Source: Candidatus Nomurabacteria bacterium (GTDB taxonomy: Bacteria; Patescibacteriota; Minisyncoccia; Phycocordibacterales; UBA918). Taken from it: a stretch of 64,000 bases of DNA. Numbering within the stretch: position 1 is the stretch's first letter; each line of letters opens with the position of its first letter. The position numbers were made by a program, and so were the translations under genes. Location of the stretch: NCBI GenBank assembly GCA_023898525.1, contig CP060227.1, positions 957,932 through 1,021,931 on the forward strand, read 5' to 3'. Positions 4,352 through 4,539 of the stretch are shown in pieces. The notes under the pieces were generated by a model, which saw only the letters and a list, made by a program, of their open reading frames with translations, did not search any database and had not been told where the DNA came from.

Positions 4352-4463
4352 GTCACACTCATGGATATTTATTTCGTCTTCGACTCATAAATATCTCATT
4401 CGCCCGACCCGGACTCGCTGCTTCGTCGCGCATGGAAGGCGCTCCTCACATCGCTCGTCTTTC
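4352..4463. repeat. GGTCAC-family structured element copy B (112 nt), about 98% identical to copy A
   Basis: Differs from copy A at 2 positions. The left flank cgggaatcg is the tRNA-Cys T-arm half. The right flank is an inverted copy of the tRNA-Cys 3' end. Confidence 0.75.
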
Positions 4464-4539
4464 GATTCCCGCCCAGGACTCACGAATTTGCGCCTCCTCG
4501 GAGGTGATGCAAATTCGTGAGTCCTGGGCGGGAATCGAA
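4461..4539. repeat. Perfect 31-bp inverted repeat (17-nt loop) built from the tRNA-Cys T-arm, acceptor 3' strand and 11-nt trailer
   Basis: ttcgattcccgcccaggactcacgaatttgc (4461-4491), loop gcctcctcggaggtgat, then gcaaattcgtgagtcctgggcgggaatcgaa (4509-4539), which is the 3' end of the real tRNA-Cys. Confidence 0.8.

Follow-up and report, generated by a model that had tools for sequence, protein, structure and literature searches.

The long perfect palindrome beside the tRNA-Cys gene is the junction of this tRNA with a small structured element in which the 3' end of the same tRNA is copied. Four clear copies of the element, here called type A, and one diverged copy lie in the window (the whole 64-kb stretch of DNA that was analysed), and more than 100 further copies were found in metagenome-assembled genomes of Patescibacteria (CPR). 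Each is a unit of about 140 nt on the tRNA's own strand, right after the tRNA's trailer hairpin, and the family, which follows tRNA and tmRNA genes all across CPR, is apparently undescribed. A full-text literature search found no tRNA-linked repeats, MITEs or structured RNAs described for Patescibacteria, Parcubacteria or Saccharibacteria; the closest publication deals with an unrelated matter, group I introns at anticodon position 35/36 (PMC13011429). We give about even weight, for and against, to the reading that the element is an RNA module that resembles the E. coli RtT repeats, is transcribed together with the tRNA and spreads through T-loop recombination.

The tRNA-Cys palindrome and the copies in the window

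The tRNA-Cys(GCA) gene occupies positions 4519-4591 on the minus strand (ARAGORN; Rfam RF00005, 65.7 bits), with its lower-coordinate end placed at 4519/4520 by ARAGORN and Rfam, and has no encoded CCA. Because the gene lies at 4519/4520-4591 on this strand, one arm of the palindrome (4509-4539) consists of the 3' terminal 20 nt of the tRNA, from the T-loop onward (T-loop, T-stem 3' strand, acceptor 3' strand and discriminator), and of the 11-nt trailer, CACGAATTTGC. The other arm (4461-4491), read on the minus strand, is the complement of the trailer followed by the 5' arm of the element, which on the tRNA-sense strand is antisense to the T-loop, T-stem and acceptor 3' strand of tRNA-Cys at 21 of 21 positions. 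By sequence reading and a repeat search, the two arms are complementary at 31 of 31 nt across a 17-nt spacer, as the preliminary description had reported, and this match is far above chance expectation. The centre (4492-4508) takes the position of the native trailer hairpin and has its own CCTCC/GGAGG mini-hairpin; counted together with it, the repeat is 39 nt long at 92%.

As RNA, the 211-nt tRNA-Cys region has a folding z-score of -9.6; as DNA, the 79-nt palindrome has a computed hairpin arm of -43.6 kcal/mol. In a precursor transcript, the long hairpin folds at -128.3 kcal/mol against -107.5 kcal/mol when the cloverleaf is enforced, which agrees with the earlier proposal that precursor folding would sequester the tRNA 3' end. 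An intrinsic terminator, with a GC-rich hairpin and then a U-tract on the transcribed strand, is not found here: after the stem the minus strand reads AGACGAGCG, with no U-tract. The same long hairpin of acceptor and trailer sequence occurs at orthologous tRNA-Cys genes in independent assemblies (L015, L019, L102, L112, L128, L129 and L137) with differing trailer sequences, so the palindrome is not an assembly artefact, a worry raised beforehand.

As had been suspected, the inverted copy is part of a repeated element next to the tRNA. At tRNA-Cys this type A element spans 4343-4480 on the minus strand (nhmmer E = 1.4e-19) and comprises the 5' arm (4461-4480), a variable P4 region (4410-4460), a conserved P2 (4351-4354 with 4406-4409) around the P3 hairpin (4361-4372 with 4387-4399), and a short 3' T-loop box, CGGGAATCG, at 4343-4351. 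It is 96% identical over 127 nt to the copy at 3778-3904, which lies within the type A element (3768-3911, minus strand; profile search and repeat comparison) of the array that follows tRNA-Leu(UAA). That element carries a perfect 19-nt direct copy of the tRNA-Leu(UAA) 3' end (3768-3786), a T-loop reading CAAGT where the tRNA has CAATT, and a degenerate inverted arm (3896-3911). Next to the tRNA-Leu(UAA) gene itself (4111-4197) lies a type B element (3964-4068, minus strand; repeat family D4), whose core differs from type A within the same bracket; its direct copy is at 3964-3985 and its inverted arm at about 4053-4068.

The analogue proposed at tRNA-Tyr holds in full: the type A element there (15593-15727, minus strand; short box 15593-15599) has an inverted arm at 15707-15727, whose 21 nt pair perfectly with the tRNA at 15777-15797. 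At tRNA-Trp (18357-18498, minus strand; motif, arm comparison and profile search) the proposed inverted copy is present but matches at 17 of 21 positions (18476-18498), and a perfect direct copy of 19-20 nt accompanies it (18361-18380). The diverged copy, A2, lies behind tRNA-Leu(UAG) (2324-2406) and covers 2130-2273 on the minus strand, with a direct copy at 2130-2148 and an inverted arm at about 2256-2273; a type B unit is found farther out behind the same tRNA, at about 1966-2060. The core motif occurs in four exact copies in the window against 0.9 expected by chance, and the genomic context of the cluster is housekeeping (infB-rbfA-tRNA), on one strand throughout. The window also holds a 40-nt duplicate of the tRNA-Gln 3' end, followed by a RhuM/Fic gene.

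Several other readings were considered and rejected. A tRNA pseudogene or a copy of the tRNA 5' strand does not fit, since the arm holds sequence complementary to the T-loop; at tRNA-Tyr, where U4 pairs with G69, the arm sequence is GCGCCGG, complementary to the 3' strand, and not GCGTCGG. Open reading frames at 4275-4520, 15597-15833 and 18341-18643 could suggest protein coding, but the variation in the stems is compensatory and not codon-like. A restriction site (TT^CGAA or T^CGA) between T55 and C56 is at odds with the copies at TTCAA T-loops, whose junction is the same. The consensus of the purine-rich internal loop fits neither a K-turn nor a loop E on inspection, and models of hairpin capping or P nucleotides expect the axis at the T-loop, whereas the actual axis lies in the trailer hairpin.

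Architecture, folded strand and distribution

Read in the sense of the tRNA, the order is tRNA, trailer hairpin, antisense arm (from T-loop to 3' end), covarying core and T-loop box, which in many copies continues into a directly repeated tRNA 3' end. The core consists of P4, of P2 around the internal loop, and of P3. The first ~20 nt of the element are exact antisense of the host T-loop, T-stem 3' strand and acceptor 3' strand, a match that at tRNA-Cys goes on into the trailer, and locus-by-locus comparison found that the arms vary with the adjacent host tRNA. Direct copies match at 19 of 19 positions in about 20 loci, the window copies at Leu(UAA), Leu(UAG) and Trp likewise end in a direct copy, and the direct repeat reaches into the trailer at L111, L056 and L133. 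The tRNA-Cys and tRNA-Tyr elements have the 7-9-nt box only, which suffices for a closing helix of 9-10 bp; T-loop-like inverted boxes (GGAATCG ... CGATTCC) mark the element ends.

The 5' arm is the single feature common to all core families (A, B, D, E and F). It is degenerate in many copies (10-17 of 21), and the inner arm has mismatches or bulges where the outer direct repeat is mostly perfect; in some loci the outer arms have been lost by decay or deletion. A perfect inner arm goes with a short outer arm, a negative association that fits no single derived mechanism. Three antisense arms stand in tandem at L076, and in the Cys lineage the arm has a further hairpin precisely where its acceptor and T-stem parts meet, the place where the D and anticodon domains leave the real tRNA. 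Two loci of one genome (L043 and L059) have cores that are 100% identical, different arms and hairpins, and true mismatches in the 5' arms. At L148, the displaced 5' portion of a tRNA-Leu ends exactly after GGTT.

The folded strand is the tRNA-sense strand. P2 and P3 are paired at 98.7%, with covariation above that of 500 out of 500 shuffles. At pair 38:101, 47 copies have G-U and 26 have A-U, which indicates that the tRNA-sense strand folds, since the opposite strand would have a C-A mismatch. The core folds better on this strand in 76 of 77 copies, as does the region of tRNA end, hairpin and 5' arm in 44 of 53. The P4 stem has 35 distinct 7-nt sequences among 50 copies, with Watson-Crick pairs at 242 of 350 positions in a crude register. 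Between tRNA and element, most copies carry a terminator-like series of A-tract, hairpin and U-rich tract.

A genome scan with the core motif gave 120 loci, nearly all of them in Patescibacteria, with the motif 160-190 nt from the tRNA 3' end. The nhmmer profile gave 135 matches, 85 of which follow a tRNA on the same strand at a distance below 400 nt, and tRNAs of at least 14 isotypes precede the matched elements. The element also lies 3' of tmRNA, with arms that match the tmRNA end (L058), and it forms arrays behind one tRNA or tmRNA (Leu(UAA) in the window, L048, L076 and L058). The unit size is uniform, the spacing between element and tRNA is constant at 41-51 nt, and a 20-nt exact motif with a covarying structure of ~100 nt is kept from Saccharibacteria to Paceibacteria. 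Across 2.9 M viral contigs the type A motif is absent, the sole match being a chance one in coding DNA. Rfam searches of the window and of other copies, at gathering and relaxed thresholds, returned tRNA/tmRNA and noise only.

At orthologous sites the element is an accessory unit. Two tRNA-Cys sites (L123 and L149) have no element and retain the trailer hairpin alone; tRNA-Cys therefore does not need the element. Four others (L127, L133, L144 and L150) hold unrelated cores inside the same tRNA-Cys bracket, so the core cannot have a single common function. Among tRNA-Cys orthologues the 5' arm is perfect or G-U-compensated although the trailers differ; it tracks changes in the acceptor (L112) and accepts G-U pairs (L129, L133 and L137). 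Between the close relatives L129 and L130, a 140-nt indel takes away the outer arms, a comparison that shows only that deletion can remove them. Between relatives, tRNA genes of the cluster have changed orientation or place, and other insertions break into arrays (L037 and L109).

Relation to known systems and competing explanations

The RtT repeats of E. coli (178-bp repeats of tyrT-tyrV; rttR, RF00391) are the closest precedent. They and the CPR elements both lie directly 3' of a tRNA on the same strand, both have a repeat unit that runs from T-loop to T-loop, and both form tandem arrays. E. coli units finish with the tRNA 3' end in direct repeat, as do many CPR units, and both kinds of unit start with a complement of the T-stem and acceptor after a spacer, of 67 nt in E. 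coli RtT and 41-51 nt in CPR. In the E. coli tyrT repeats (NC_000913), the direct copy of the tRNA-Tyr 3' end has its junction in the T-loop and the inverted T-arm copy lies 67 nt from the tRNA; the closing helix of the Rfam RtT consensus is GgGaaGGAU/AUCCuuCcC. There is, however, no detectable similarity in sequence or covariance model. RF00391 had no match in the window at the gathering threshold, nor at E<=5 over 1900-4650, nor at E<=1 in L058, L041 and L146, and the E. coli positive control (L161) gave four matches of 133-138 bits. RtT is known only at enterobacterial tRNA-Tyr, whereas the CPR elements occur at no fewer than 14 isotypes and at tmRNA, with several unrelated cores. Unlike in RtT, the CPR 5' arm often spans the whole acceptor and the trailer, giving perfect hairpins of 20-31 bp with the real tRNA, and the 3' arm is often cut to the 7-9-nt box; the CPR host tRNA genes have no encoded CCA. 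In E. coli, RtT is a detected RNA from the tRNA primary transcript, and its function is, to our knowledge, not established. For a similarly processed RNA in CPR, the G-U strand bias offers only indirect support. Background on RtT RNA biology is given elsewhere (10.1101/2024.07.17.603846; PMC3318445).

Under the RtT-like reading, the tRNA promoter would also serve the unit, through read-through. The tRNA-Cys hairpin has no U-tract after it, and another tRNA follows farther downstream on that strand; since a terminator-like hairpin with a U-rich tract precedes most copies, transcription of the element would depend on read-through. The 5' arm would pair with the unit's own 3' arm or box and close the core, and this closing helix may mimic the host tRNA's stacked acceptor/T stem, which could allow tRNA-processing enzymes to release and stabilise the unit, as proposed for E. 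coli RtT. Alternatively, the partner of the 5' arm may be the 3' end of the tRNA itself. With a 3' arm of only 9 nt in the tRNA-Cys element, the sole full-length partner of the 5' arm is the genuine tRNA end with the trailer, hence the perfect 31-bp hairpin at this locus. The tRNA-Cys precursor would have two mutually exclusive folds, either a cloverleaf with a 12-bp trailer hairpin and a closed element, or a single long hairpin in which the tRNA 3' end is buried. New copies would arise by DNA recombination or duplication with junctions inside the T-loop (between T55 and C56 for type A), and the displaced tRNA 3' end would be left as an outer direct repeat, later deleted or decayed. Acceptor mimicry does not explain the 7-9-nt 3' arms, that of the tRNA-Cys copy included, nor the true 5'-arm mismatches beside identical cores at L043 and L059. 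The different cores in the same bracket also speak against the RtT-like reading, which leaves the first origin of arms for a new tRNA unexplained. The strand asymmetry would fit equally well a single-stranded DNA of the tRNA-sense strand.

Such a folded single strand is the substrate in a second reading, which we regard as possible but rather unlikely, namely a recombination cassette similar to attC sites or CTX phage. A unit of ~190 nt, made of tRNA 3' end, trailer, hairpin, antisense arm and core, would enter any tRNA or tmRNA gene between T55 and C56; the antisense arm would let the single strand fold onto itself and so present a recombinase with a restored double-stranded T-loop site, with the tRNA gene in the role of attI and the newest cassette stacked next to the tRNA. 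The precise junctions within the T-loop argue for such a cassette, as do the exact cut after GGTT at L148, the unit arrays, the usual combination of a perfect outer repeat with an attC-like mismatched or bulged inner arm, the foreign CAAGT in the displaced Leu(UAA) end, which resembles a crossover-region heteroduplex, the good folding on one strand only, and the inverted or shuffled tRNA genes of the cluster. tRNA and tmRNA genes are also classic integrase targets, with a sublocation in the T-loop, as Williams reportedly described in 2002. With integrative elements of tRNA and tmRNA genes the units share the T-loop target, the displaced 3' segment as direct repeat, and stacking; yet they measure ~140-190 bp and have a structured non-coding core and an extra inverted copy of the tRNA end, with no integrase gene or kb-scale cargo between the repeats and no conserved ORF in the 140-190-bp units. 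With attC and CTX-phage attP(+) they share an imperfect hairpin on one strand and fixed-orientation, cassette-like arrays by a fixed site, but their arms are copies of the host gene, their cargo is a structured non-coding module, and there is neither evidence of IntI/Xer nor the core sequences R''/L''-L'/R'. Inspection found no attC core sites (RYYYAAC ... GTTRRRY), the hairpin base being the T-loop box CGAATCC ... GGATTCG, and the 50 window ORFs scanned include no tyrosine recombinase that would point to a platform of IntI, attI and Pc. This Pfam scan, whose 50 ORFs came from RbfA and the 54 ORFs with 140 aa or more, found no tyrosine or serine recombinase, Y1/HUH transposase, TnpB or reverse transcriptase. 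Also against a cassette are the absence of the motif from the viral contigs, an orientation that is always that of tRNA transcription, with an E. coli analogue that is a detected RNA, and the expectation that an element bringing in the 3' end of one tRNA would disable every other tRNA into which it inserted. In one genome (L043/L059), identical cores are flanked by differing arms and hairpins, so that hairpin and arms do not travel with the core as a cassette requires, unless gene conversion is added. A wider version, in which every tRNA/tmRNA T-loop of CPR is an integron-like platform, the folded strand restores the tRNA on insertion, and structured RNAs from tRNA promoters act, through a programmable antisense 5' arm, as a cis-acting maturation switch for each tRNA, seems to us similarly doubtful. 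The hairpin-mediated insertion proposed at the outset is kept as a rival in this attC/CTX-like form and finds no support in the IS200/IS605 form. An origin as the end or footprint of an IS200/IS605-type or other transposon or MITE is highly improbable: hairpins and T-loop-like inverted boxes at both ends would suit it, but the arm sequence beyond 7-9 nt follows the host tRNA and not the element, direct-orientation target-site duplications are absent, all insertion sites are 3' flanks of tRNA/tmRNA genes, and the scan of 50 window ORFs gave no TnpA or TnpB, its only transposases being two IS30-like DDE genes (25644-26561 and 35808-36740) 21-31 kb away.

The arm and hairpins might also be inert scars, left without present role by decayed integrase islands or prophages that once sat in tRNA 3' ends. 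Direct repeats of tRNA 3' segments are a hallmark of such integrations, the tRNA-Gln duplicate before the RhuM/Fic gene is a window example, arrays are interrupted by other insertions, and outer arms decay or are deleted. Scars of this kind nevertheless appear improbable, given the exact motif and covarying structure kept from Saccharibacteria to Paceibacteria, the G-U strand bias, the uniform unit size and constant spacing, the compensated long hairpins in orthologues, and the lack of a coding remnant in any unit. Hardly more probable is a cis-acting control or processing stem, in which the antisense arm alone is essential and competes with the 5' strands of the tRNA for its 3' end, as a maturation switch or an RNase III-type stem for read-through precursors, and the cores are interchangeable sensors or stuffers. 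Stems of rRNA-operon processing and intrinsic terminators likewise bracket the end of a stable RNA by local or long-range complementarity, whereas the CPR stem includes 20 nt of mature tRNA and the tRNA-Cys hairpin has no U-tract. In favour of such a stem are the 5' arm shared by all core families, its perfect or G-U-compensated state across tRNA-Cys orthologues despite trailer differences, a long hairpin 21 kcal/mol more stable than the cloverleaf alternative, the three tandem arms at L076, and the extra hairpin at the arm's acceptor/T-stem junction in the Cys lineage. The empty sites, where tRNA-Cys does without it, and the degenerate 5' arms of many copies speak against it, and we know of no effector or ligand. 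This stem and the RtT-like module are compatible and not mutually exclusive.

Meaning for RtT repeats and CPR genomes

The RtT repeats, known from one tRNA operon, have been unexplained for more than 40 years. A bracket of the same kind recurs across a bacterial super-phylum of tiny genomes, with strong covariation and several interchangeable cores, and its presence behind most isotypes and tmRNA suggests a general route by which small RNAs or cassettes colonise tRNA genes. The elements are a candidate new RNA family, missing from Rfam 15, and offer a large comparative data set on the role of such modules, whether in maturation control, as hitch-hiker RNAs or as recombination substrates, and on the making of target-specific arms. 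The units also explain many of the partial tRNA copies, long palindromes, and tRNA-gene inversions and rearrangements in CPR assemblies.

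The tRNA-Cys palindrome and the repeated element behind it

The perfect 31-nt inverted repeat described at tRNA-Cys (4461-4491 versus 4509-4539) is borne out by the window sequence and by a repeat finder. Its 17-nt centre holds a mini-hairpin of 4-5 bp, and with this included the repeat finder returns a palindrome of 39 nt at 92%. Both ARAGORN and Rfam annotate a minus-strand tRNA-Cys(GCA) at 4519/4520-4591, and the right arm (4509-4539) is therefore the terminal 20 nt of the tRNA, from T-loop to discriminator, followed by the 11-nt trailer. RNA folding of the region gives z ~ -10 on both strands, and the 79-nt palindrome as DNA has a computed arm of -43.6 kcal/mol. 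Of the two counterparts proposed in the preliminary description, that at tRNA-Tyr is perfect over 21 nt; that at tRNA-Trp exists as an imperfect inverted copy (17/21), with a perfect direct copy also present.

The suggestion that the hairpin reflects an adjacent element is supported, its upstream arm being one end of a repeated element. Reading of the flanks places a ~130-nt repeat behind tRNA-Cys, tRNA-Leu(UAA), tRNA-Tyr and tRNA-Trp, and a diverged form of it downstream of tRNA-Leu(UAG). The segments 3778-3904 and 4343-4469 are 96% identical, and the motif GGTCACNCTCRTGG has 4 exact matches in the window against 0.9 expected by chance. Read on the plus strand, each window copy opens with an antisense copy of the adjoining tRNA's 3' end that reaches as far as the complement of C56, and closes with the T-loop and the 3' strands of T-stem and acceptor in sense orientation; the upstream arm of the palindrome is this closing sense copy. 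A second family (type B) is located in the same arrays as the main one (type A), and the order infB-rbfA-tRNA-Cys-element-tRNA-Leu(UAA)-(type B)-(type A)-tRNA-Lys lies entirely on the minus strand.

The window has several other features of note. A short hairpin module (gtaaaagtgtctcccagacacttttac / gtaaaacagtctcccagacttttac) recurs beside tRNA fragments at 4271-4297 and 46276-46303, and the copy between the Cys element and tRNA-Leu(UAA) lies within an apparent degenerate tRNA-Leu 5' fragment (TGGAATTGGTAG ... AGGGAATTG). Within 46141-46343, tRNA-Gln(CUG) is succeeded by a 91-nt insert and then by a 98%-identical direct copy of its last 40 nt, from the anticodon stem, and the next gene after the duplicate encodes a RhuM/Fic-domain protein (46430-47410); the arrangement looks like a small island integrated at an anticodon-loop sublocation. 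The tRNA-Tyr and tRNA-Trp elements flank two adjoining T4SS-pilin-domain genes (16142-17973), one of which also encodes an SLT lytic transglycosylase domain. An 85-nt G/T-rich repeat (48226-48310, 49187-49271 and 50488-50572; 65-87% identical) precedes each of three successive plus-strand genes (Vut_1 transporter, Band_7 and one of unknown function). Between topA and dprA (29881-30964), two repeat pairs spaced by ~544 bp are 80-81% identical, suggesting tandem duplication. The only transposases detected in the window are two IS30-like genes (HTH_38 + rve; 25644-26561 and 35808-36740).

Anatomy, folded strand and arms

In tRNA-sense order, the tRNA is followed by 41-51 nt made up of an A-rich trailer, a hairpin and a U-rich complement, and then by a 5' (inner) arm antisense to the 3' strands of acceptor and T-stem and to the T-loop. 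CCGAG or AAGAC leads into P4, a GC-rich stem that contains an inner hairpin and a loop of the GCGAAGCC type. CGAGUGGRGG follows, and then P2 (GGUCR/UGACC) around a purine-rich 5x5 internal loop and P3, an AU-rich hairpin of 12-13 bp. GAGAGUGAC is joined to C56 and the remaining T-loop box, and some copies continue into a 3' (outer) arm that directly repeats the tRNA 3' end. P2/P3 pairing reaches 98.7%, and its covariation is greater than in every one of 500 shuffles and in every slid control (81 double-change cells versus 26 in shuffles). P4 shows 35 distinct 7-nt stem sequences in 50 copies; in a crude register, Watson-Crick pairs occupy 242 of 350 positions. The tRNA-sense strand is the folded strand. 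At pair 38:101, 47 copies have G-U, which would be a C-A mismatch on the opposite strand, and 26 have A-U; the core is more stable on the tRNA-sense strand in 76 of 77 copies (mean 6.3 kcal/mol), as is the tRNA-end/hairpin/5'-arm region in 44 of 53.

Arm lengths are bimodal. About 20 loci combine a perfect 19-nt outer arm with an inner arm matching at 10-17 of 21 positions, about 17 (the window's Cys and Tyr copies among them) show an outer box of only 7-9 nt and a perfect inner arm of 18-21 nt, and both arms are perfect at 4 loci; at three comparison loci (L111, L056 and L133) the 19-nt outer arm runs on into a copy of the trailer/hairpin. Imperfections of the inner arm concentrate at the T-stem/acceptor junction, where the tRNA-Cys lineage carries an extra hairpin. 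These mismatches are not simple decay, because two loci of one genome, L043 and L059, have 100% identical cores with different hairpins and with arms specific for tRNA-Asp and tRNA-Leu(GAG), respectively, true mismatches being present in each. Outer arms can be lost by deletion, since a 140-nt indel between the close relatives L129 and L130 removes those of two convergent units together with the intervening terminator. At L104 the inner arm is that of tRNA-Tyr and the outer arm tRNA-Arg-like, and the outer arm of the window's tRNA-Leu(UAA) has a foreign T-loop, CAAGT.

Distribution and orthologous sites

A scan of 185,579 species genomes with one 20-nt degenerate motif gave at least 120 loci; among the matches listed, nearly all were metagenome-assembled genomes of Patescibacteria (Saccharibacteria, Paceibacteria, and Kaiser-, Campbell-, Nomura-, Vogel- and Shapirobacteria). 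The few listed matches outside Patescibacteria fall in coding DNA and are partial and due to chance. At 160-190 nt from the motif stands the 3' end of a tRNA, annotated on the strand opposite to the motif, which places the element on the tRNA's strand. A profile HMM detected 135 copies in the 1.09 Mb of DNA fetched. A tRNA on the same strand lies fewer than 400 nt upstream of 85 of these (14 isotypes), 15 are at locus edges, and the remaining strong copies stand behind other insertions or truncated tRNA ends. One locus (L058, 1-883) has a tmRNA gene with two stacked units, the proximal with a different core and the distal of type A, and the arms of these units correspond to the tmRNA 3' end. 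The element was absent from viral contigs, and Rfam 15 holds no family matching it. It apparently represents an undescribed, CPR-wide family of structured elements appended to tRNA and tmRNA.

A metagenome scan based on RbfA provided 39 orthologous loci, among which the tRNA-Cys site can be empty, filled by type A or occupied by unrelated cores. L123 and L149 are empty sites, with tRNA-Cys followed only by its native trailer hairpin and tRNA-Leu(UAA) lying 66-82 nt on. Type A is present as in the window at L128, L129 and L137, the same bracket encloses unrelated cores at L127, L133, L150 and L144, and L152 and L155 are compact clusters with spacers of 26-55 nt; the elements are thus accessory and modular. 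Among L122-L160, orthologues of window positions 2300-4650, cluster tRNA genes and segments are inverted or reordered. Rearrangements of the rbfA-tRNA-Cys-Leu-Lys-Leu cluster involve single tRNA genes and multi-gene segments, and tRNA-Cys is on the opposite strand at L122, L132, L134, L135, L138, L140 and L147. Upstream of intact tRNA-Leu, tRNA-Lys and tRNA-Cys genes, 5' portions of tRNAs recur as incomplete duplicates (L148, ~4640-4790; L155, ~1060-1230), and since one pseudo-tRNA-Leu ends exactly after the T-loop GGTT, insertions replacing the 5' part of a tRNA also occur. Another recurrent sequence (…GCGG|GCTACGTGGGTTAAGTACCAGG…), without a match in Rfam, breaks into a tRNA-like end a few nucleotides into the acceptor at L020, L021, L037 (~2940-3020) and L110.

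RtT precedent and possible origins

The E. coli tyrT operon contains 178-bp repeats with 19 nt of tRNA-Tyr at the end of each. Direct inspection of NC_000913 (L161, 1286000-1287600) showed that each tyrT unit has the direct copy GATGGTGGTGGGGGAAGGATT, with its junction within the T-loop, and, beside this well-known 19-nt copy, an inverted 22-nt T-arm copy of tRNA-Tyr (86% matching), separated from the tRNA by 67 nt. Between tyrT and tyrV there is a fourth RtT unit. In the Rfam consensus, the closing helix GgGaaGGAU/AUCCuuCcC is followed by ccaCCACCA. RtT shares its bracket with the CPR elements, the direct 3' copy being complete at about 20 loci and in the window's tRNA-Leu(UAA), tRNA-Leu(UAG) and tRNA-Trp copies and reduced to a 7-9-nt box at tRNA-Cys and tRNA-Tyr; no homology is detectable between the cores. 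PMC3318445 and 10.1101/2024.07.17.603846 describe RtT as a detected RNA processed out of the tyrT transcript, for which the former cites Bosl & Kersten 1991.

The comparisons establish the placement, strand, structure, arm logic and accessory status of the elements; the preferred reading, an RtT-like RNA module, has about an even chance of being right. The unit would be transcribed by read-through from the tRNA promoter; at tRNA-Cys the stem lacks a following U-tract and the next tRNA lies downstream on the same strand. The 5' arm could then pair with the element's own 3' side or with the real tRNA 3' end. Sequestration of that end, raised in the preliminary description, agrees with the predicted energies: the unconstrained fold, in which the 5' arm captures the tRNA's 3' 20 nt and trailer, reaches -128.3 kcal/mol, versus -107.5 kcal/mol with the cloverleaf enforced, a 12-bp trailer hairpin and the element closed by its own 9-10-bp helix. 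That the structure is purely a cis-regulatory or processing stem is quite unlikely. In an RtT-like module with a full 3' arm, the closing helix would reproduce the host tRNA's stacked acceptor/T stem. RNase P, RNase Z and the CCA-adding enzyme recognise this part of a tRNA and would free and stabilise the module, a route that has been suggested for RtT.

The 3' foot of the trailer hairpin is exactly where the element starts, its 5' arm extending this hairpin over the tRNA end. Among orthologues trailer sequences vary and stem pairing is kept, with G-U pairs on the sense strand at L129, L133 and L137 and, at L112, an acceptor change matched by a change in the stem. This retained pairing argues for selection on a single-stranded sense molecule and not for one-off copying; that the elements are inert scars is very unlikely. 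Spread at the DNA level would place the junctions within the T-loop, at T55|C56 for type A and G53|T54 for type B, and would leave the displaced tRNA end behind as the outer repeat. It may have proceeded by site-specific recombination of a folded single strand, by unequal or homologous recombination following natural transformation (DprA is encoded at 30853-31725) or by template switching. A cassette mobilised as a folded single strand is a possible but doubtful account of the family, and the IS200/IS605-type attribution was not upheld, such an origin being scarcely credible. The finding exceeds a single cruciform in interest, as it exposes a family appended to tRNA and tmRNA that follows the logic of E. 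coli RtT.
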